Source of the DNA: Escherichia coli | Lineage (GTDB): Bacteria; Pseudomonadota; Gammaproteobacteria; Enterobacterales; Enterobacteriaceae | NCBI RefSeq assembly: GCF_051903065.1 | Contig: NZ_CP178438.1 | Direction: 5' to 3' (one strand) | Length of the DNA: 64,000 bases | Shown: positions 9,082-56,294 of the stretch, piece after piece | Layout of the letters: each line of letters begins with the position of its first letter | How positions within the stretch are numbered: position 1 is the first letter of the stretch | The notes under the pieces: generated by a model | Told to the model about the DNA's origin: nothing | The model's database searches: none | Seen by the model: the letters and a program-made list of their open reading frames with translations, nothing else | Translations under genes and position numbers: made by a program

Positions 9082-9906
9082 TCAGGCGGTGAAAGTACCA
9101 ATAAAGGTTTCTACTTTGCTGTCCTTGAATTTCTCAACAAGCAGATCACGAAATTCGTTAGCCATTTCTTCCTGCACCGCCTCCAGCTGAATAATGCGCA
9201 GAACCAGTACAGGACGATCGCCAGTGATAATGCTGAGGCGTAATTTAAACGGACGTTCTTTCAGACCTTCAAACGGAACGCATTTAAATTCAAATGCCAC
9301 TGGCATAATGTCTTTGGTCTTCGCTTCGACAGACTCCATCAGGGAGCGTTTGCCGCTGAAGTCATTGTCTTCAAAATCAGCGGTCTGGTTCGCTTCAATT
9401 GTGATTTTACGGATCGCCGCAGCCGCTTTGGTTGCCTGAATGGCGTCACCATTAGCATCAAAGCCCACAAGGTAGTCTGCCCAGTCTTCAATCCATTCTG
9501 CCAGTGACTTCTGGGAGTTACGCTCGCCATTAACAGACAACAGAGCAGAGAACGGTGCTGTCTTTTTCAGTTTGAGAGTGGCGGTGTTATCTGCGTGACC
9601 TGGTTCATCAATAGTACCCAGGTTAAGCACACTGACGGCTCGCATATTATCGGCATCGATAAAGCAGCGGGTGCCTTCATCTGCAAGATCTTTAGAATAA
9701 CGGGTAAAGTCATCGATGCTGGCAGTGGAAAGTGCACCACGGAAACGGAAACGATTTAAATTAAATTTTTCCAGATCATGAATGCGGAAATTCTCAGGCA
9801 ATGCCACAGCATCGGCACCAATCTTACTGATAATTTCATTAACACCCTGAGCAGAAATAAGGGCATGGATTTGATTAATTGCGGTTGAGTCTAAGTTCTG
9901 AGACAT
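9082..9906 (-). CDS. DUF2303-like phage protein (YfdQ-like)
   Basis: 274 aa [21 protein letters not shown]...; recalled resemblance to CPS-53 yfdQ. Confidence 0.55.
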
Positions 9907-9971
9907 AATAAGTCCTCACTATATTAAGATATTCAGTGATGAGATAAATAATCAGTTAATTAAGAACGATA

Positions 9972-10334
9972 TTAATGACCTGCTGCGCGGAGTTTTCCGT
10001 CAGGTTCACCGGCAAGAGTCAGTAATTGTCCCTGGTCTTCCTGCAGAATAGTCAGGCGACCACCGCGATTGACATACATCGGCGTTTCGGTGGTGTCTTC
10101 TTCGGAAATTTTCCCGCGGTTAGTCGGGCGAACATATGAGAGTTTGTGTTTGATTTTCACACGGTTCTCATCAAATGGTTCGATTTCCAGGTTGAGTGAG
10201 ACCTTACCTTTGGTTTTCGTGTTCATCACACCGGAAGCGACTTCACTGAGAACTGCGCCGATTTTGGTTTCAAATACGCCGCCGTCCAGCTCCCCGATAA
10301 ATTCCTGCACGTTGGTACTGCGTTCGCTAGCCAT
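9972..10334 (-). CDS. hypothetical phage early protein (120 aa, YfdP-like)
   Basis: Real start taken at the internal Met (MASERSTNVQEF...) preceded by GAGGAG; the track ORF was extended upstream across a hairpin region. Confidence 0.55.
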   Translation of the reverse strand: MASERSTNVQEFIGELDGGVFETKIGAVLSEVASGVMNTKTKGKVSLNLEIEPFDENRVKIKHKLSYVRPTNRGKISEEDTTETPMYVNRGGRLTILQEDQGQLLTLAGEPDGKLRAAGH

Positions 10335-10942
10335 TTTGCTGCTCCTCATCATATCGACCCTGCAAGGTCGGTTGGTTTCTCCACAAAACAGAGAAGAACA
10401 CCTGCGGTGGTAGCCGCCCGGATGGATTGGGTTATGAGCCCGTCGTCCGGTGATGCTCTTCTCTGTTTTGTAAAAAGAGCGGTACCAGCCGGAAGCAAGT
10501 GTACAAACTGGTACCGCCAAAGCAGTGGCTGTTGTGGTGGGGTTGTCACTCAGGCGTATGGTCAACCTGACAATCCGGTGTCCTCAACGGGGAAAGAGTA
10601 ACCCCGCCATACTTACCGCCGCGCCATTTCGCGGATTACCACAACGCTGAGAGCACTTAGCCAGTTACGGCACCACACTTTGTCGAGGTTCCATAAATGC
10701 CCTCATCGTTGCACCCTGGTCTCTTCCCAGGCGTCAAACCGAATCGCCACGCTGGTTAGGCGTCTTATCAGCATCCTCATTGACTTGCACATTCCGGCTA
10801 CCTGGTTTGTTTGCCCGAGCAAGGAGTGGATTGTCCCCTTTAACGTCCCCAGACCGCTAACGACGCATGTGCCATACGCCGTGTTACAACCAAATTTTGT
10901 CAGGACCTTGTTTGTTGGTCTGGAAAGAAAGATAAAATGAAA

Positions 10943-10980
10943 TTGCGTAACGTGCAAGTATTTTATTGCGAGATATGCAA
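10943..10980. promoter_or_regulatory. putative OL operators / pL region
   Basis: Two TTGC-N7-GCAA palindromes (TTGCGTAACGTGCAA 10943-10957; TTGCGAGATATGCAA 10966-10980), the same motif as at the cI/cro intergenic region. Confidence 0.5.
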
Positions 10981-10994
10981 TAGTGTGAGTAATG

Positions 10995-11016
10995 AAAAGC
11001 CACCTTCTGGTGGCTA
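10995..11016 (-). terminator. terminator downstream of the repressor gene
   Basis: GCCACC-ttct-GGTGGC hairpin (11000-11015) followed by a U-run on the minus strand. Confidence 0.55.
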
Positions 11017-11036
11017 ATTGATGTTGAGGTAGGGGG

Positions 11037-11729
11037 TTAATTGTGTCGCTTAAGGGTTTGTGACTGACTGATTAAGACCTTTCCAAAGACCATAAACCGG
11101 TGTTCGTTTTCGCTGGTAATTCCCCATTCGCGGTAAATCTGATTATCAGAAATTACCAGCAGTTTATCAGGTATCATTTGCAGTCGTTTGACGTAAATTT
11201 TATCATCAAAACCAAATACATATATACCATCCCCATCAAACTGATTGATACTGATATCAACGAAGATGAGATCTCCTGGCTCAATGGTTGGACACATACT
11301 GTCCCCACGAACGTTGATAACTTTAATGTGATTTGCTGGTCGTCCACCAAACATCGATACAGCATTATCAGTTCTGTATTCAATGGCATGAATCACATCA
11401 ATGACATCACCGCCCTGGATAAGGCCATTTCCCGCACTGGCACTGACATCCAGCATTTCAATACGGAATACATCCTTCACCTGCGCAACATCCTCACTAA
11501 TACTGTTTTTACATACAGTATTACTTTTGAGGTCTGAGGTAAAGAGATCAGCAATATCAACACCTAAGCTCCTGGCAATATTACTCAGGGCTTGTTCAGT
11601 GAATTGTTTCTGCTTACCTGTTTCGAGGCGCGAGATATTCGCCGCATCCACTCCTATTGCTTCAGCGAGATCGGCGATTTTCATGTTCTTCGCCTGGCGA
11701 AGTTGTCTGACTCGATTTCCTATGTTCAT
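11037..11729 (-). CDS. CI-like prophage repressor (HTH_XRE + S24 LexA-like peptidase domain)
   Basis: 230 aa; N-terminal IGNRVRQLRQAKNMKIADLAEAIGVDAANISRLETGK (HTH); C-terminal ..VRGDSMCPTIEPGDLIFVD...KRL (Ser/Lys autocleavage-type motifs). Confidence 0.85.
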   Translation of the reverse strand: MNIGNRVRQLRQAKNMKIADLAEAIGVDAANISRLETGKQKQFTEQALSNIARSLGVDIADLFTSDLKSNTVCKNSISEDVAQVKDVFRIEMLDVSASAGNGLIQGGDVIDVIHAIEYRTDNAVSMFGGRPANHIKVINVRGDSMCPTIEPGDLIFVDISINQFDGDGIYVFGFDDKIYVKRLQMIPDKLLVISDNQIYREWGITSENEHRFMVFGKVLISQSQTLKRHN

Positions 11730-11826
11730 GCGTTTATTACATTTCTTTATTGCGCGTTAAGCAAATCAACTTGCGCAAAATATTTGCGTGAAATAATATG
11801 CTCATCACGCAATATGTGGAGGTTAT
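11730..11826. promoter_or_regulatory. divergent PRM/PR promoter-operator region
   Basis: TTGCGCGTTAAGCAA (11750-11764; TTGC-N7-GCAA), palindromic TTGCGCAA (11771-11778), inverted repeat TTGCGTGA...TCACGCAA (11784-11812); candidate PR -35 TTGCGC / -10 TAATAT with 17-bp spacing. Confidence 0.6.
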
Positions 11827-12087
11827 ATGCAATCACCATTACGGAATGTGCGTAAGGCGCACGGATTTACTTTGCAGCATGTTGCTGCGGGCGTTCAGGT
11901 CAATCCAGCGACGCTGAGTCGTATTGAAAGACTGGAACAAATTCCATCTATCGATCTTGCAGAACGTCTGGCCAATTTTTTTAAGGGTGAAATCAGCGAA
12001 ATGCAGATTCTTTATCCGGCACGTTTTCAATCTAGCCAAAACCAGAATGGGTTTAAACCACAGGAACAGGAGGTAAGCCGTGGGTAA
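11827..12087 (+). CDS. Cro-like HTH regulator
   Basis: 86 aa; GGAGG RBS; ..AHGFTLQHVAAGVQVNPATLSRIER.. HTH; divergent from the repressor gene. Confidence 0.75.
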   Translation: MQSPLRNVRKAHGFTLQHVAAGVQVNPATLSRIERLEQIPSIDLAERLANFFKGEISEMQILYPARFQSSQNQNGFKPQEQEVSRG

Positions 12088-12631
12088 GCATCATTGGAAA
12101 GTGGAAAAACAACCTGAGTGGTACGTGAAAGCTGTCAGAAAAACTATCGCGGCATTGCCAGGGGGTTACGCTGAAGCTGCTGACTGGCTGGATGTAACAG
12201 AGAACGCTTTATTCAACCGCCTTCGTGCAGATGGCGATCAGATTTTCCCGTTGGGATGGGCAATGGTTTTACAGCGTGCTGCTGGCAATCACCACATTGC
12301 GGATGCTGTCGCACAGTCTGCTGGTGGGGTGTTTGTATCACTTCCTGAAATTGAGGAAGTAGAGAACGCCGATATCAACCAGCGCCTGCTGGAGGTCATT
12401 GAACAGATCGGCAGTTATTCCAGACAGATTCGTTCAGCAATTGAAGACGGGGTGGTGGAACCACACGAGCAGGCAGCAATTAACGACGAGCTGTACATGT
12501 CAATTTCGAAGCTGCAGGAGCATGCAGCACTGGTCTACAAAATCTTTTGCGCTCCAGAAAAGAGTGACGCCCGCGAGTGTGCAGCTCCGGGCGCCGTGGC
12601 GTTTTGTGTCTGTGGAGAAACTAACGCATGA
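12080..12631 (+). CDS. hypothetical early protein (position of a CII-like regulator)
   Basis: 183 aa, GTG start with AGGAGG RBS, overlaps the cro stop; family not recognised. Confidence 0.45.
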
Positions 12632-12966
12632 ACAGTTTAACAACACACTACCGTCGCTCGCAACTGATTGCGCTTCCTGTACCGGGTGGAAAAGCGAAGG
12701 TGGAGTATTGCTATGCAGTGAATGTACCAGGTGACAGGGAAATTGTAACCCACAGCTTTGCAGAGTGGGCTGTGGGTGATTTCAACCGGCAGAAGGAGAC
12801 AGTCCTTTGCGACAAGTTAACCGCTGGTTCAAAGATCACTACGGAGTGCCCGTCAGAGTCATTCGTTGGGAGCCGGAAACACAACGGGTTATCTACCTCC
12901 GTGAAGGCTATGAACATGAATGCTTCAGTCCGCTCGAACAGTTTCGTCGTAAATTCAGGGAAATAG
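12628..12966 (+). CDS. hypothetical protein; an overlapping ORF in another frame (12807-13019) may represent a frameshift or second gene
   Basis: ATGA start-stop overlap with the upstream gene; the alternative frame looks more protein-like toward the 3' end. Confidence 0.3.
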
Positions 12967-12975
12967 AGGTCGGTC

Positions 12976-13968
12976 ATGAGCCTGTTAATGACATCCCAGC
13001 CCATTGTGATAAATCGTGATCTTGCATGCCGTATTGGTCTGAATGAGGCAATTGTGTTGCAGCAGCTTCATTACTGGCTGAATGAAACGAATTCAGGCAC
13101 TGAGCATGGCGGAATTCGCTGGGTTTATAACACGACAGAACAGTGGCTGGAGCAGTTTCCGTTCTGGTCAGAGTCCACTCTGAAACGCACATTTGCAAGC
13201 CTGAAATCACTTGGGGTTTTGCGTCGCGAGCAACTCAATAAATCGAAGCGTGACATGACCAACTTCTACACGATCAACTATGAAAGTGAGCTTTTAGAAG
13301 AGGTCAAAGTGAACGAATCGATCAGGTCAAAATGCACTTCTCCATCGGGTCAAAGTGACCTGATGGATGGGCGCAAAATGACACGATCCATTGGTTCAAA
13401 ACGACACGCTGTCATCGGGTCAAAATGGCCCAATGATCTTACAGAGAATACAACAGAGATTACTACAGAGAATAAAACCTCTTCTCGTCCGGACGCTTCG
13501 CAACCGGACACGCAAACGGCTGAACAGGAGTTTTTAACTCGCCATCCTGATGCGGTTGTATTCAGCCCTAAAAAGCGCCAGTGGGGAACGCAGGATGATT
13601 TGACCTGCGCACAGTGGCTCTGGAAAAAAATCATCGCCCTGTACGAGCAGGCCGCCGAATGTGACGGCGAGGTGGTTCGTCCCAAAGAACCGAACTGGAC
13701 AGCCTGGGCAAACGAAATTCGCCTGATGTGTGTGCAGGATGGTCGTACTCACAAACAAATCTGCGAGATGTACAGCCGCGTCAGCCGCGATCCGTTCTGG
13801 TGCCGTAACGTGCTCAGCCCGTCGAAGTTGCGGGAAAAATGGGATGAGCTTTCCCTGCGCTTATCGCCGTCCGTCAGCACGCACACAGAAAAACGTGAAG
13901 ACCCGTACTTCAAAGCCAGTTACGACAACGTGGACTACAGCCAGATCCCGGCAGGATTCAGGGGGTGA
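12976..13968 (+). CDS. replication initiator (lambda O-like / DnaD-like N-terminal domain) containing the origin iterons
   Basis: 330 aa; N-terminal winged-helix-like region; iterons lie within the coding sequence, as in lambda O. Confidence 0.65.
   Translation: MSLLMTSQPIVINRDLACRIGLNEAIVLQQLHYWLNETNSGTEHGGIRWVYNTTEQWLEQFPFWSESTLKRTFASLKSLGVLRREQLNKSKRDMTNFYTINYESELLEEVKVNESIRSKCTSPSGQSDLMDGRKMTRSIGSKRHAVIGSKWPNDLTENTTEITTENKTSSRPDASQPDTQTAEQEFLTRHPDAVVFSPKKRQWGTQDDLTCAQWLWKKIIALYEQAAECDGEVVRPKEPNWTAWANEIRLMCVQDGRTHKQICEMYSRVSRDPFWCRNVLSPSKLREKWDELSLRLSPSVSTHTEKREDPYFKASYDNVDYSQIPAGFRG
13301..13475. repeat. putative phage origin: five GGT(C/T)CAAA(A/G)-type iterons plus AT-rich ACAGAGAATA repeats
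   Basis: GGTCAAAGTG (13303), GGTCAAAATG (13325), GGTCAAAGTG (13348), GGTTCAAAACG (13393), GGTCAAAATG (13418); ACAGAGAATA x2 at 13441-13475. Confidence 0.6.
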
Positions 13969-14459
13969 TCATGAGTCTTTTGAATGAAGTTCAGAAATTC
14001 ATTGAAGCCCATCCGGGGTGTACTTCCGGAGACATTGCGGATGCTTTTGCAGGTTACTCACGGCAGCGCGTTCTGCAGTCAGCAAGCAAGTTACGTCAGA
14101 GTGGGCGTGTGGCTCACCGTTGTGAAGGAGATACACGCAGACATTTCCCACGCCTGACTGAGAGAGCGCAGGAGCCGGAACCACAACCAGTTCGTGAAAC
14201 CAGACCTGTGCGCAATTTCTATGTCGGCACTAACGATCCCCGGGTGATTTTGTGCCTGACCCGCCAGGCGGAAGAACTGGAGTCCAGGGGCCTATACCGT
14301 CGTGCTGCAACGGTGTGGATGGCGGCATTCCGTGAAAGCCACTCCCAGCCAGAACGAAACAATTTTCTGGTGCGTCGTGAGCAGTGTTTACGGAAAAGCA
14401 GCAAGCGCGCTGTATCGGGTGATGAGTGGTATCTGTCAGGGAATTACGTGGGGGCTTAA
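13965..14459 (+). CDS. hypothetical protein (possible DNA-binding/replication accessory)
   Basis: 164 aa; ATGA overlap with the O-like gene; no family recognised. Confidence 0.4.
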   Translation: MIMSLLNEVQKFIEAHPGCTSGDIADAFAGYSRQRVLQSASKLRQSGRVAHRCEGDTRRHFPRLTERAQEPEPQPVRETRPVRNFYVGTNDPRVILCLTRQAEELESRGLYRRAATVWMAAFRESHSQPERNNFLVRREQCLRKSSKRAVSGDEWYLSGNYVGA

Positions 14460-15112
14460 TGAGTAATAAATATTGCCAGGAGCTGGTGGAACTGCGGAAC
14501 AAACCAGCCCATGAACTGAAGGAAGTGGGTGATCAGTGGCGCACGCCGGACAACATTTTCTGGGGAATTAACACCCTGTTTGGCCCGTTTGTTCTGGATC
14601 TGTTCACTGACGGTGATAACGCCAAATGTGCCGCGTATTACACGGCGGAAGACAACGCGCTGGCGCATGACTGGTCAGAACGCCTTGCGGAGCTTAAAGG
14701 TGCTGCCTTTGGTAATCCTCCATACAGCCGCGCCAGTCAGCATGAGGGGCAATACATCACCGGCATGCGTTACATCATGAAACATGCCAGTGCCATGCGT
14801 GATAAGGGCGGGCGCTATGTTTTCCTGATCAAAGCTGCCACCAGCGAAGTGTGGTGGCCGGAAGATGCAGATCATATTGCTTTTATTCGCGGGCGTATTG
14901 GTTTTGAACTGCCTGTCTGGTTTATCCCGAAAGACGAGAAGCAGGTACCGACAGGAGCTTTTTTCGCTGGTGCTATTGCTGTTTTTGACAAGACCTGGAA
15001 GGGACCGGCAATCAGCTACATCGGGCGCGATGAACTTGAGGCATGTGGTGAGGCGTTTCTGGCGCAGGTTCGCCAGCAGGCGGAAAAACTGGTCAGGGAG
15101 ATGGCGGCATGA
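14459..15112 (+). CDS. phage Dam-type N6-adenine DNA methyltransferase
   Basis: Start at the internal ATG overlapping the upstream stop (TAATG); catalytic ..AFGNPPYSRA.. (NPPY) motif. Confidence 0.7.
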   Translation: MSNKYCQELVELRNKPAHELKEVGDQWRTPDNIFWGINTLFGPFVLDLFTDGDNAKCAAYYTAEDNALAHDWSERLAELKGAAFGNPPYSRASQHEGQYITGMRYIMKHASAMRDKGGRYVFLIKAATSEVWWPEDADHIAFIRGRIGFELPVWFIPKDEKQVPTGAFFAGAIAVFDKTWKGPAISYIGRDELEACGEAFLAQVRQQAEKLVREMAA

Positions 15113-15435
15113 CGACATTAACTCAATGCCAGCAGCAGGTGCTGGATATGCTGATTTCTTATCAGAAAGAGCGTGGCTTTCCGCCAACCAATCAGGAGGT
15201 GGCAACCATGCTGGGATACCGTTCAGTGAATGCAGCGGTGGAGCATCTTCGCGCACTGGAGAAAAAAGGCGTCATCACGATAAAGCGTGGCGTGGCCCGG
15301 GGGATAACGCTTCATACCGCGGTGAAGGACGACGACAGCGAGGCGGTCGGGATTATCCGCGCACTGCTTGCCGGTGAGGAAAACGCAAGGCTGCGTGCAA
15401 CCCACTGGTTACATGAGAGGGACCTGAAAGTATGA
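15109..15435 (+). CDS. LexA N-terminal DNA-binding-domain-like protein lacking the peptidase domain
   Basis: 108 aa; MTTLTQCQQQVLDMLISYQKERGFPPTNQEVATMLGYRSVNAAVEHLRALEKKGVITIKRGVARGITL aligns by eye with host LexA residues 1-69 in this same window. Confidence 0.7.
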   Translation: MTTLTQCQQQVLDMLISYQKERGFPPTNQEVATMLGYRSVNAAVEHLRALEKKGVITIKRGVARGITLHTAVKDDDSEAVGIIRALLAGEENARLRATHWLHERDLKV

Positions 15436-15821
15436 AGCTGATCCTGCCTTTTCCGCCCAGCGTGAACACGTACTGGCGACACCCCAACAAAGGGGCATTT
15501 TCTGGTAAGAGCCTGATAAGCGCGGCGGGGCGAAAATTTCAGAGCGCGGCGTGCGCAGCAATAGTTGAGCAGTTACGTCGTCTGCCAAAACCAACGTCGG
15601 CACCTGCTTCAGTGGAGATCGTGTTGTTTCCTCCGGATAACCGGATCCGCGATCTGGACAACTATAACAAGGCGCTGTTTGACGCCCTGACCCACGCGGG
15701 TGTGTGGGAAGACGACAGACAGGTGAAAAGAATGCTGGTGGAGTGGGGACCGGTTATCCCGGAAGGGAAGGTCGAGATCACTATCAGTAAGTACGAGAAA
15801 ACGGCGGGTGCAGCCGCCTGA
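15432..15821 (+). CDS. rusA: RusA Holliday-junction resolvase
   Basis: 129 aa; ..LPFPPSVNTYWRH..RDLDNYNKALFDALTHAGVWEDDRQV.. matches the recalled RusA family pattern. Confidence 0.8.
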   Translation: MKLILPFPPSVNTYWRHPNKGAFSGKSLISAAGRKFQSAACAAIVEQLRRLPKPTSAPASVEIVLFPPDNRIRDLDNYNKALFDALTHAGVWEDDRQVKRMLVEWGPVIPEGKVEITISKYEKTAGAAA

Positions 15822-15840
15822 GCAAAAGGAGAAACGAAGT

Positions 15841-16650
15841 ATGAATAATCTGATGGTCATTGATGGTATTGAAGTTCGTCGTGATGCTTATGGGCGTTAC
15901 AGCCTGAACGATCTGCATCGCGCAGCAGTAGCATCTGGTGCAAATGCCAGAACCAAGGAGCCGGGAAAGTTTCTTTCCAGCCAACAAACTGTTGAGCTTG
16001 TTCATGAATTGACCAACACCCAGAATTTGGGTGTTGACCCGGTGAGTGTGATTCATGGGGGAAATGAAAGGGGAACGTATGTCTGCAAGGAACTGGTGTA
16101 TGCCTATGCAATGTGGATCAGCCCGTCATTCCATCTGAAGGTGATCCGTACTTTCGATATGGTAACCAGCGCACCGGAAAAATTATCCGGACAGGCTGCT
16201 GACAAGATGCAGGCTGGCGTGATCCTGCTGGACTTTATGCGCCGGGAGTTAAACCTGTCTAACTCTTCAGTGCTTGGTGCCTGTCAGAAACTCCAGGAGG
16301 CTGTTGGCTTACCGAATCTGGCACCGCGCTATGCCATTGATGCTCCTGCTGACGCGCCTGATGGCTCAAGCCGCCCCACGCTATCATTGAGTGCACTGCT
16401 GAAGCAGTATGGTATCCGCCTGACAGCTAATCAGGCATATCACCAGATGGCGAAGCTGGGGATCGTTGAACAACGTGAACGATACAGCCGCACTGCGATT
16501 AACAACATCAAAAAATTCTGGTCGCTGACAGCGAAAGGCTGCATGTTCGGCAAGAACATCACCAGTCCCGCAAATCCGCGCGAGACGCAGCCGCATTTCT
16601 TCGAATCCCGATTCCCTGAGCTGTTAAAGCTGCTCGATACCGTTCATTGA
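15841..16650 (+). CDS. KilA-N domain protein (anti-repressor-like)
   Basis: 270 aa; MNNLMVIDGIEVRRDAYGRYSLNDLHRAA.. N-terminus typical of KilA-N; ATG preceded by AAAGGAG. Confidence 0.6.
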   Translation: MNNLMVIDGIEVRRDAYGRYSLNDLHRAAVASGANARTKEPGKFLSSQQTVELVHELTNTQNLGVDPVSVIHGGNERGTYVCKELVYAYAMWISPSFHLKVIRTFDMVTSAPEKLSGQAADKMQAGVILLDFMRRELNLSNSSVLGACQKLQEAVGLPNLAPRYAIDAPADAPDGSSRPTLSLSALLKQYGIRLTANQAYHQMAKLGIVEQRERYSRTAINNIKKFWSLTAKGCMFGKNITSPANPRETQPHFFESRFPELLKLLDTVH

Positions 16651-16651
16651 G

Positions 16652-17647
16652 GTGACCGTGAGAGCACTACTGACTCCTGAAATTGCCCCGCGTATGGGGA
16701 TCGTATTGTTCAGGCCAGGTTCAGAGCTGATGCCCCTGTTTATGCAGGGGCGTGTCCTGTTGGAGCCTGAGCCGGAACGTTATTCATCTTTTGCCAGTGG
16801 TGCCGTTCCGGCGGTATCACAACCGCTGGCGGATGATCCTGCCGTTCGGGGCGTGTTCCGCAATGAGGCAGTGATCCGTCGTGCTGGTGGCGTGGAATGT
16901 CTTGAAAGCTGGTTACTTCGTGAAAAGGGCTGTCAGTGGCCTCATTCCGACTGGCACAGCGAGAACATGACCACAATGCGGCACGCGCCGGGCGCAATCC
17001 GTCTGTGCTGGCACTGCGATAACCAGCTGCGCGATCAGTTCACGGAACGGCTGGAATCAATGGCAACGGATAACTGTGCCCGCTGGGTATTGTCTGTTGT
17101 GCGTCGGGATCTCGGTTTTGATGATAGTCACGTTGTGACAATGCCGGAACTGTGCTGGTGGCTGGTTCGTAATGACCTGGCGGATGCCTTACCGGAAAGT
17201 GCAGCCCGTAAGGCACTGAGATTACCGAAGCCTGTTGTGCCGTCTGTCACCCGGGAAAGTGACCTTGTGCCTTCGGTTCCTGCCACCAGCATCATCCAGG
17301 ATAAGGCGAAAAAGGTGCTGGCGCTGAAAGTGGATCCGGAGTCGCCGGAGTCTTTTATGTTACGCCCAAAACGTCGCCGCTGGGTTAATGAAAAGTACAC
17401 GCGCTGGGTTAAGACACAGCCGTGTGCATGTTGTGGAAAGCCCGCTGATGATCCCCACCACCTGATAGGCCACGGTCAGGGGGGAATGGGTACAAAAGCG
17501 CATGACCTCTTTGTGTTGCCTTTGTGCAGAAAGCATCACGACGAGCTGCATGCGGATACCGTGGCATTTGAAGAGAAGTATGGCTCCCAGTTGGAGCTGA
17601 TATTTCGTTTTATCGATCGTGCGCTGGCAATAGGCGTACTGGCGTAA
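16652..17647 (+). CDS. DUF968-type nin-region protein with C-terminal Cys/His nuclease-like motif
   Basis: C-terminus ..CACCGKPADDPHHLIGHGQGGMGTKAHDLFVLPLCRKHHDELH..; start may be the GTG at 16658. Confidence 0.55.
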   Translation: MTVRALLTPEIAPRMGIVLFRPGSELMPLFMQGRVLLEPEPERYSSFASGAVPAVSQPLADDPAVRGVFRNEAVIRRAGGVECLESWLLREKGCQWPHSDWHSENMTTMRHAPGAIRLCWHCDNQLRDQFTERLESMATDNCARWVLSVVRRDLGFDDSHVVTMPELCWWLVRNDLADALPESAARKALRLPKPVVPSVTRESDLVPSVPATSIIQDKAKKVLALKVDPESPESFMLRPKRRRWVNEKYTRWVKTQPCACCGKPADDPHHLIGHGQGGMGTKAHDLFVLPLCRKHHDELHADTVAFEEKYGSQLELIFRFIDRALAIGVLA

Positions 17648-17660
17648 GTGGAGAACGAGC

Positions 17661-18413
17661 ATGAACCTTGAAGCCTTACCAAAATATTACTCCCCAAAAT
17701 CTCCCAAATTGAGCGATGAGGCACCGGCGACAGGCTCGAGTGGTTTAACGATTACGGATGTGATGGCTGCGCAGGGGATGGTGCAGTCGAAAGCACCGCT
17801 TGGGTTTGCCTTATTTCTGGCAAAAGTTGGTGTTCAGGATCCTCAGTTTGCGATTGAAGGTCTGCTCAATTACGCGATGGCACTGGATAACCCGACATTG
17901 AACAAATTGAGTGAAGAAACCCGGTTACAGATCATCCCTTACCTTGTGAATTTTGCCTTTGCTGATTATTCCAGGTCTGCTGCAAGTAAGGCTCGCTGTG
18001 AGCATTGTGCTGGTACTGGATTTCATAATGTATTGCGCGAAGTGGTGAAACACTCCAGAAGCGGGGAATCTGTTATCAAGGAAGAGTGGGTGAAGGAACT
18101 ATGTCAGCATTGTTATGGTAAGGGAGAGGTCAGCACAGCGTGTAGAGGGTGTAAGGGGAAAGGTATTGTACTGGATGAAAAAAGAACCCGGCTTCATGGT
18201 GCGCCTGTTTATAAGGTTTGTGGGCGTTGCAATGGAAACCGGTTTAGCCGTTTACCAACCACACTGGCGCGGCATCATGTCCAGAAGCTGGTACCGGATC
18301 TGACGGATTATCAGTGGTACAAAGGATATGCAGATGTCATTGATAAACTGGTTACAAAGTGCTGGCAGGAAGAAGCATATGCAGAGACACAATTGAGAAA
18401 AGTGACAAGATAA
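17661..18413 (+). CDS. late-gene antiterminator Q-like protein
   Basis: 250 aa with multiple CxxC pairs; placed immediately upstream of a promoter-terminator pair and the lysis cassette. Confidence 0.55.
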   Translation: MNLEALPKYYSPKSPKLSDEAPATGSSGLTITDVMAAQGMVQSKAPLGFALFLAKVGVQDPQFAIEGLLNYAMALDNPTLNKLSEETRLQIIPYLVNFAFADYSRSAASKARCEHCAGTGFHNVLREVVKHSRSGESVIKEEWVKELCQHCYGKGEVSTACRGCKGKGIVLDEKRTRLHGAPVYKVCGRCNGNRFSRLPTTLARHHVQKLVPDLTDYQWYKGYADVIDKLVTKCWQEEAYAETQLRKVTR

Positions 18414-18444
18414 ATGATTTTCGCCGAAGATGGCGACATGATGC

Positions 18445-18473
18445 TTGCATTTTTCAAAAAATATGGATAAGAT
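18445..18473 (+). promoter_or_regulatory. candidate late promoter (pR'-like)
   Basis: TTGCAT (18445-18450), 17-bp spacer, TAAGAT (18468-18473), about 50 nt upstream of a strong terminator. Confidence 0.4.
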
Positions 18474-18518
18474 TTTCCCAACGATGGGCTTTGTATGTCT
18501 ACCGTTGATAAGATTTAA

Positions 18519-45812: not shown

Positions 45813-47228
45813 ATGGCAGGAAATAAACCCTTCAACAAACAGCAGGCTGAACCCCGCGAACGCGATCCACAAGTTGCCGGGCTGAAAGTGCCTCCGCACT
45901 CGATCGAAGCGGAGCAGTCGGTGTTGGGCGGTTTAATGCTGGATAACGAACGCTGGGATGATGTAGCCGAGCGTGTGGTAGCAGACGATTTTTACACCCG
46001 CCCACACCGTCATATCTTTACTGAAATGGCGCGTTTGCAGGAAAGCGGTAGTCCTATCGATCTGATTACCCTTGCGGAATCGCTGGAACGCCAGGGGCAA
46101 CTCGATAGCGTCGGTGGTTTTGCTTATCTGGCAGAGTTGTCAAAAAATACGCCAAGTGCGGCGAACATCAGTGCCTATGCGGACATCGTGCGTGAACGTG
46201 CCGTTGTCCGTGAGATGATCTCGGTTGCGAATGAGATTGCCGAAGCTGGTTTTGATCCGCAGGGGCGTACCAGCGAAGATCTGCTGGATCTGGCTGAATC
46301 CCGCGTCTTTAAAATTGCCGAAAGTCGTGCGAACAAAGACGAAGGGCCGAAGAACATCGCCGATGTGCTCGACGCAACCGTGGCACGTATTGAGCAGTTG
46401 TTTCAGCAGCCACACGATGGCGTTACCGGGGTAAACACCGGTTATGACGATCTCAACAAAAAAACCGCTGGCTTGCAGCCGTCGGATTTGATCATCGTCG
46501 CCGCGCGTCCGTCGATGGGTAAAACAACATTTGCGATGAACCTCGTCGAAAACGCGGCGATGTTGCAGGATAAACCGGTACTTATCTTCTCGCTGGAGAT
46601 GCCATCAGAACAGATCATGATGCGTTCTCTGGCGTCGCTGTCTCGCGTTGACCAGACTAAAATCCGTACCGGGCAGCTCGATGATGAAGACTGGGCGCGC
46701 ATTTCCGGCACCATGGGTATTTTGCTCGAAAAACGCAATATCTATATCGATGACTCCTCCGGCCTGACGCCAACGGAAGTGCGTTCCCGCGCACGCCGTA
46801 TTGCCCGTGAACACGGCGGCATCGGGCTTATCATGATCGACTACCTGCAACTGATGCGCGTACCGGCACTTTCCGATAACCGTACGCTGGAAATTGCAGA
46901 AATCTCCCGCTCGCTGAAAGCACTGGCGAAAGAACTGAACGTGCCAGTGGTGGCGCTGTCCCAGTTGAACCGTTCTCTGGAACAACGTGCCGACAAACGT
47001 CCGGTCAACTCCGACCTGCGTGAATCTGGCTCTATCGAGCAGGATGCGGACTTGATCATGTTTATCTATCGTGATGAGGTGTATCACGAAAACAGTGATT
47101 TAAAAGGCATCGCGGAAATTATTATCGGTAAACAACGTAACGGCCCAATCGGGACGGTACGCCTGACCTTTAACGGTCAATGGTCGCGCTTCGACAACTA
47201 TGCGGGGCCGCAGTACGACGACGAATAA
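45813..47228 (+). CDS. dnaB: replicative DNA helicase DnaB
   Basis: 471 aa; Walker A ..ARPSMGKTTFAMN..; recalled N-terminus MAGNKPFNKQQ.. Confidence 0.95.
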   Translation: MAGNKPFNKQQAEPRERDPQVAGLKVPPHSIEAEQSVLGGLMLDNERWDDVAERVVADDFYTRPHRHIFTEMARLQESGSPIDLITLAESLERQGQLDSVGGFAYLAELSKNTPSAANISAYADIVRERAVVREMISVANEIAEAGFDPQGRTSEDLLDLAESRVFKIAESRANKDEGPKNIADVLDATVARIEQLFQQPHDGVTGVNTGYDDLNKKTAGLQPSDLIIVAARPSMGKTTFAMNLVENAAMLQDKPVLIFSLEMPSEQIMMRSLASLSRVDQTKIRTGQLDDEDWARISGTMGILLEKRNIYIDDSSGLTPTEVRSRARRIAREHGGIGLIMIDYLQLMRVPALSDNRTLEIAEISRSLKALAKELNVPVVALSQLNRSLEQRADKRPVNSDLRESGSIEQDADLIMFIYRDEVYHENSDLKGIAEIIIGKQRNGPIGTVRLTFNGQWSRFDNYAGPQYDDE

Positions 47229-56292: not shown

Positions 56293-56294
56293 TA

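Follow-up and report, generated by a model that had tools for sequence, protein, structure and literature searches.

The stretch of DNA analysed here (the window, 64,000 nucleotides) is a chromosomal piece of Escherichia coli that contains a lambdoid prophage of the CPS-53/SfII type adjoining a dusA fragment. In the early region of this prophage a cI-like repressor gene lies on the minus strand (11037-11729). The early-right operon comprises a cro-like gene, a CII-like gene (12080-12631) and a small ORF, followed on the plus strand by a 330-aa ORF (12976-13968) that encodes an O-like replication initiator. The genes located 3' of the initiator are, in order, PerC/YfdN, Dam, LexA-like, RusA, KilA-N, DUF968 and Q, the phage Dam methylase gene (14426-15112) being 1 kb downstream of the proposed origin described below. 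When positions 12976-13480 (505 nt) were used as a query, a match of 100% identity was found in strain CT29, where a complete set of lysis, terminase, portal and capsid genes is present.

The initiator matches PHROG 391, 'replication initiation O-like', over its entire length (E 1.3e-101; residues 1-330 against profile positions 1-298 of 298), and gave no match with the Pfam and NCBIfam profiles or in a PDB sequence search. PF04492 (Phage_rep_O) does not match it at E 0.01 or better, whereas lambda O, used as a positive control, matches this profile with an E of 5.7e-36. As PF04492 recognizes lambda O and not the window protein, the N-terminal domain of the latter belongs to a different family. 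Pfam Phage_rep_org_N does not match either, and when the members of the N-domain alignment were scanned one by one against Pfam, all that appeared were winged-helix matches below threshold. In an AlphaFold2 model built on a 27-sequence alignment, the N-terminal domain (residues 6-109, encoded on the plus strand at 12991-13302), presumed to bind the repeats, has a pLDDT of about 78-91 and the topology H-H-E-E-H-H-E-E. The top Foldseek matches to this domain are winged-helix DNA-binding domains, with E values of 0.04 or worse and none at 0.001; the list includes 4pql, 4pt7 and 5kbj (E 0.09-0.13), among them staphylococcal RepA_N initiators. Taken together this is suggestive of a winged-helix fold. 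Residues 110-180 are unstructured in the model (pLDDT about 30, and below 50 up to residue 180); they correspond to window positions 13303-13515, i.e. to the iterons, the AT-rich block and a conserved flank. The C-terminal helical domain (residues 181-299; 13516-13872, plus strand) is a homologue of the lambda O C-domain. BLASTP with lambda O gives 33% over 148 aa (E 1e-26) in the C-terminal half only, without N-terminal similarity, and the alignment begins at the last iteron and the AT-rich block; by tblastn, homology with lambda O residues ~135-270 amounts to 38% over 112 aa.

Repeat search, TRF and consensus scan delimit six tandem 23-nt iteron units on the plus strand of this gene (13297-13435), located at 13297-13319, 13320-13342, 13343-13365, 13366-13388, 13389-13411 and 13413-13435, thus with spacings of 23, 23, 23, 23 and 24. 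TRF itself reports 13302-13427 with a period of 23 and 5.4 copies. The core of the unit is GGTCAAARTG, and its consensus sATCrGGTCAAArTGAC. The original prediction had rightly placed the repeats at this position inside an O-like ORF, but had counted five of them, having overlooked the degenerate unit 4 (GGCGCAAAATG). The repeats are far above chance. Exact GGTCAAARTG occurs four times in the 64 kb, always within the array, for an expectation of 0.40, and none of 100 shuffles reached four. With up to three mismatches, the 16-mer consensus detects all six units in phase as well as the reverse strand of unit 3. Outside the array the same scan of the 64 kb yields two lone matches, at 56294 and 63965 (1.55 expected), and no second iteron cluster elsewhere in the window. 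Unit 3 (CATCGGGTCA-AAG-TGACCTGATG) is a near-perfect palindrome with 10-nt arms, of which 9 of 10 positions match, and the left half-site is kept in the remaining units. A 9-nt perfect inverted repeat that surrounds the array (13296-13304 and 13477-13485) is not conserved in the aligned homologues and was treated as a chance occurrence.

The array corresponds to nt 322-460 of the gene and encodes residues 108-154, mostly within the disordered linker formed by residues 110-180. In the translation (EEVKVNESIRSKCTSPSGQSDLMDGRKMTRSIGSKRHAVIGSKWP) the iteron core is read in all three frames, giving EVK/RKM in units 1 and 4, R/G-S-K in units 2, 5 and 6, and GQS in unit 3. A reiterated peptide had also been announced: IGSK...IGSK does exist, but its sole source is units 5 and 6, whose 24-nt spacing keeps them in frame, the peptide of unit 2 being IRSK. 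Because a 23-nt period cannot stay in frame and most copies do not share a peptide, the repetition is one of DNA and not of protein.

An A-skewed AT-rich block (13438-13478, plus strand; 32% GC), the presumed unwinding element, comes next, as predicted. It consists of three 12-nt repeats (ACAGAGAATACA, ACAGAGATTACT and ACAGAGAATAAA, starting at 13441, 13453 and 13465, with ACAGAGAWTAC in common), where only two, the exact copies, had been counted originally and the middle 12-mer had been overlooked. The repeat search places these units at 13440-13478. ACAGAGAWTA is found three times in the window against 0.17 expected, and TRF gives a period of 12 with 3.2 copies for the block. Of all 40-mers in the ORF, 13438-13477 is the least stable (-44.6 kcal/mol, versus -56.0 +/- 3.8 for 11000-18000), and it ranks in the top 1.7% of the window for duplex instability. 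The top strand of the block contains 22 A versus 9 T, its A-rich strand matching that of the lambda AT tract. The block is nearly invariant across homologues, and the GATC at 13435, which joins the last iteron to it, is invariant in all of them. GATC is also present at 13320 and 13385, i.e. three sites in the 184-nt origin versus a window mean of 4.1 per kb. These sites, together with the phage Dam gene, give hints of a control of the origin by methylation or SeqA.

Inside the disordered linker lies a GC-rich conserved flank (CTCTTCTCGTCCGGACGCTTCGCAACCGGACACGCAA; 13479-13515, plus strand), with 89-90% nucleotide identity versus ~70% for the rest of the gene; synonymous sites are changed at 1 of 21 positions over residues 155-180. 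SfII has this flank as well, and the conservation of its synonymous sites equals that of the origin. It may be part of the origin and the counterpart of the right-hand element of ori-lambda. Directly to the right of the AT-rich block, the flank contains CCGGAC twice as a direct repeat (CGTCCGGAC and CAACCGGAC). No DnaA box was found within the origin. Neither was a sigma-70-like promoter found inside the initiator gene, be it in the array, adjoining it or elsewhere. Terminator-like matches are weak (6, versus 3.3 +/- 1.9 in the shuffled region), and an Rfam scan of 10500-15500 revealed no RNA family.

Selection on this DNA was assessed by comparing the gene with its homologues in E. coli phage HannyBb, a Rac-like prophage, a Klebsiella phage and a Providencia phage, the synonymous-change fraction being counted among codons whose amino acid is unchanged. 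This fraction is 0.10-0.25 for residues 108-180, versus 0.46-0.58 for the N-domain and 0.44-0.51 for the C-domain (the latter in the two comparisons with an alignable C-domain). In the three closest comparisons the linker shows 3-5 times less synonymous change than the flanking domains; Fisher p values for the four comparisons are 2.7e-5, 1.8e-5, 1.2e-5 and 3.7e-3. Amino-acid change is, in contrast, higher in residues 108-180 (0.25-0.54) than in the N-domain (0.20-0.42). Nucleotide identity peaks at 89-93% over 13396-13515, versus ~70% elsewhere in the gene. Low synonymous change combined with high amino-acid change is the signature of a putative cis-acting DNA element that overlaps a tolerant coding region. 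Recent recombination could be partly behind the local nucleotide conservation, an explanation that fits poorly with the increased divergence of the amino acids there.

Of 5426 complete E. coli genomes, 1975 contain the N-terminal half with its array (N-domain, repeats and AT-rich block). This module is hosted by prophages of CPS-53, Rac and Qin type and by Klebsiella and Providencia phages, and Escherichia virus mEp460_4F5 carries it at 99.6% identity. In IMG/VR, the best 80 loci comprise 75 distinct complete genes, all of which have 4-6 cores at 23/46/24 phasing and 2-5 12-mers each. The partner C-domain in these 75 genes is Phg_2220_C in 52 cases and of the lambda-O-C type in 23. These best 80 loci held only relatives at 78% identity or more, and no new distant cases of covariation. 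The module and its exchangeable C-domains meet at a recurrent mosaic joint at the right edge of the AT-rich block (13466-13475): homology with SfII and SfIV begins at nt 491-497 of the gene, and that with the Klebsiella phage stops at nt 499. More remote relatives of the N-domain, at 39-50% identity, occur in other phages, and those at ~50% identity are labelled Staphylococcus and Brevibacillus in the protein database. One metagenomic relative (42% identity) has three GTGCAAATTGCAC units with a spacing of 23 nt and an AT-rich block after them. SfII has an unrelated N-half and its own GTCAnAATCTGAC repeats, spaced by 15 nt, at the same position in the gene, and the O gene of Stx2_EH2201 likewise has an unrelated N-half, with GGGAAAACCnATTTCG repeats in 23-nt phasing and then the ACAGAGAATAC block. 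That the half-site varies with the N-domain, with period and CAAAWTG centre remaining constant, is what would be expected if the N-domain reads the repeats.

The AT-rich block at 13435-13474 (GATCTTACAGAGAATACAACAGAGATTAC...) is 97.5% identical in many O genes of Stx-converting phages (positions 1501-1552 of locus L012), the N-halves and iterons of these O genes being unrelated to those of the window; Stx2_EH2201 is one such phage. The block of 12-nt repeats resembles a portable cassette or, alternatively, a hot spot of recombination. A distant 188-aa relative of the N-domain, with GGACAAAATGACCA repeats, is encoded on the metagenomic contig SRR30681705_21600 (locus L015, 306-3067), where it directly follows ParA-like and ParB-like genes. 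This type of initiator may also serve plasmid-like or phage-plasmid elements.

Ori-lambda offers the closest layout for comparison. There too the initiator gene has the origin in its middle part, with tandem dyad sites that have a TCAAAA centre, an A-rich block downstream and then the region encoding the C-domain; its iterons are spaced by 20, 24 and 23 and start at nt 349 of the gene (322 here). In contrast, ori-lambda has four sites instead of six, with the half-site ATCCCTC instead of GGTCA; the N-domain described here is not PF04492, the AT-rich block consists of three 12-nt repeats, and no P gene follows. The lambdoid origin layout, including that of six-iteron origins, has been described (PMC7466680). 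In the Stx phages 933W and P27, six iterons and an AT-rich tract lie inside O, and the extra iterons are weakly bound yet needed for replication (PMC7466680). These phages have a true lambda-type O, lambda-type iterons and a P gene, whereas the N-domain and iterons considered here are of another class. With SfII, SfIV and CPS-53 (yfdO) the prophage shares a C-terminal domain at 97-98% nucleotide identity, the downstream PerC/YfdN, Dam, LexA-like and RusA genes, and the lack of a loader; the N-domain of SfII differs in being HTH_36/GntR-like. Replisome organisers of Firmicute phages (SPP1 G38P/oriL, lactococcal TP901-1 rep) also bind repeats inside their own gene, but in other hosts and with other partner proteins, and, as said, without a Phage_rep_org_N match on our side. 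The Rac oriJ region (ydaU-ydaV) resembles the locus in being a prophage origin with an adjacent initiator, and this very N-module and array are found, with ydaV after them, in some Rac-like prophages. Identity with Rac oriJ was nevertheless rejected: the N-domain of K-12 YdaU is DUF1376, another module, so the papers on oriJ do not apply to the element of the window.

We conclude that positions 13297-13478 are very probably the vegetative replication origin, of lambda type, of this CPS-53/SfII-like lambdoid prophage, and that the origin possibly extends to 13515. The lambda-ori-like arrangement inside the initiator gene that had originally been proposed is supported at the sequence level. All features of the lambda layout are present: an origin between the regions coding for the N- and C-domains, dyad repeats, and then a meltable AT tract. 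As judged from its letters, the element is ordinary in kind; it is its specificity class (N-domain family, GGTCA-N3-TGACC iterons, AT-rich block of 12-nt repeats) that is new. None of the records retrieved bears a rep_origin annotation at the module, and neither the iteron nor the 12-mer strings led to anything relevant in a full-text search of the open-access literature.

Replication could be initiated as follows. Dimers of the putative winged-helix N-domain would bind the six 23-bp iterons, whose phasing and dyad symmetry are apparent, and an O-some-like nucleoprotein complex would form that stresses the adjacent DNA. The A-rich block at 13438-13478, the least stable DNA of the gene, would then melt. 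The C-terminal part of the initiator would bring the host DnaB helicase, which would be loaded via host factors, possibly through the DnaT-like tail described below. Rightward early transcription from the cro side would cross the origin, as at ori-lambda. In temperate phages, GC skew tracks the direction of transcription.

Alternatively, the repeats could be bound by the initiator, or by some other protein of the phage, purely for regulation (autorepression, copy control or handcuffing, for example), with replication starting elsewhere in the prophage. Plasmid iterons function in copy control as well, and a prophage without a loader gene would fit such a role. We consider this improbable nonetheless: a least stable, strand-asymmetric AT-rich block always follows the repeats and would be superfluous for mere regulation, the array neither contains nor adjoins a promoter-like site, the 16-mer scan gave no second cluster in the window, and the layout is that of the experimentally proven lambda and Stx origins. 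Just as improbable, in our opinion, is that the architecture is that of a true origin but the copy a relic, in a prophage that is defective or has ceased to use it. Cryptic prophages of the Rac and Qin types do harbour related modules, and the CPS-53 relative of K-12 is defective. However, the initiator ORF is intact, the array is identical in many genomes and closely matches that of mEp460_4F5, strain CT29 combines it with full lysis, terminase, portal and capsid functions, and purifying selection on the DNA is strong. Finally, that the segment is a low-complexity peptide repeat of the linker, or DNA kept as a recombination joint, without any protein-binding role in cis, is very improbable, for although it encodes a disordered linker, yields a repeated IGSK from units 5 and 6 and has mosaic joints at its right edge, its 23-nt units run through three frames mostly without a common peptide, amino acids diverge faster than synonymous sites, the palindrome of unit 3 and the left half-site of the other units are features of DNA, and different N-domains go with different repeats.

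If the segment is the replication origin, as we favour, the provenance of the helicase loader has to be considered. The early region (4760-18500) has neither a lambda P nor a DnaC-like loader nor a phage helicase gene. In the window, tblastn gave no match for lambda P, for either of two YdaV proteins or for the Stx2_EH2201 protein that is annotated 'DNA helicase', and PHROG scans of ten other early-region genes and of the two immediate neighbours of the initiator gave no loader or helicase. Both are likewise absent from the retrieved regions of SfII and mEp460_4F5. Without these genes, loading must use host factors, and the lambda mechanism is not transferable step for step. The loader is missing although the C-domain of the initiator and the P-binding half of lambda O are homologues. 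A 471-aa ORF (45813-47228) occupies what we take to be the position of dnaB, given the K-12 order dusA-pspG-qorA-dnaB. If this ORF is dnaB, the prophage would be inserted at dusA, within a few kb of the helicase gene to be borrowed, which is probably a coincidence.

The initiator ends with the tail SQIPAGFRG (residues 322-330; 13939-13965, plus strand), which is identical at 8 of 9 positions to the end of E. coli DnaT; the extreme C-terminus of the host protein is SQIPPGFRG. IPxGFRG is essentially invariant in 105 DnaT orthologues. Among the IMG/VR initiators with this N-module (best 80 loci), 74 of 75 have the tail, whichever of the two C-domains they carry. The motif [IV]PxGFR[GS] is found on initiators with a lambda-O-C or a Phg_2220_C type domain and on DUF1376/YdaU initiators, YdaU of K-12 Rac included, although the N- and C-domains of these proteins are unrelated. 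A tblastn search of all phage records with the DnaT tail returned several records without annotation; the annotated matches were mostly replication, O or DNA-binding genes. Lambda O, which is accompanied by P, lacks the tail, and so does the O protein of Stx2_EH2201, whose gene is followed by a helicase gene. The tail is, however, also present where the DnaC-like YdaV follows, in Rac-like prophages, and is therefore not simply a substitute for a loader. The peptide IPPGFRG gave no match in a full-text search of the open-access literature. A role for DnaT residues 154-179 is not described in PMC4132743, and the mode of recruitment of DnaB/DnaC by DnaT is given as unknown in PMC13377028. We can speculate that the tail may be a short docking motif for DnaB-DnaC or PriA, that is, a mimicry of DnaT, through which these phages would exploit the helicase-loading apparatus of the host. 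Since the ACAGAGAATAC block is common to origins with unrelated iterons, it could be a portable unwinding cassette. A tentative extension of these ideas, which we advance with some reserve, is that of a P-independent lambdoid replicon assembled from portable parts, with the tail as host-docking motif and the ACAGAGAATAC block as unwinding cassette.

The module of N-domain and iterons is annotated in E. coli genomes as 'hypothetical protein' or, wrongly, as 'Primosomal protein I', a RAST label that results from the DnaT-like tail. It is present in about one third of complete E. coli genomes with its origin unmarked. Now that it is defined, prophage origins and classes of replication specificity (incompatibility) can be called from sequence. 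The module also constitutes a clean case of origin specificity being exchanged as one cassette, with a fixed joint at which the host-interaction domain is replaced. The observation of the DnaT-like tail could outweigh the origin class in potential importance. Initiators that have this tail and no loader provide a handle on how such phages, and the restart primosome, recruit the helicase, and if the tail is indeed a docking motif, it would point to how DnaT recruits DnaB/DnaC.
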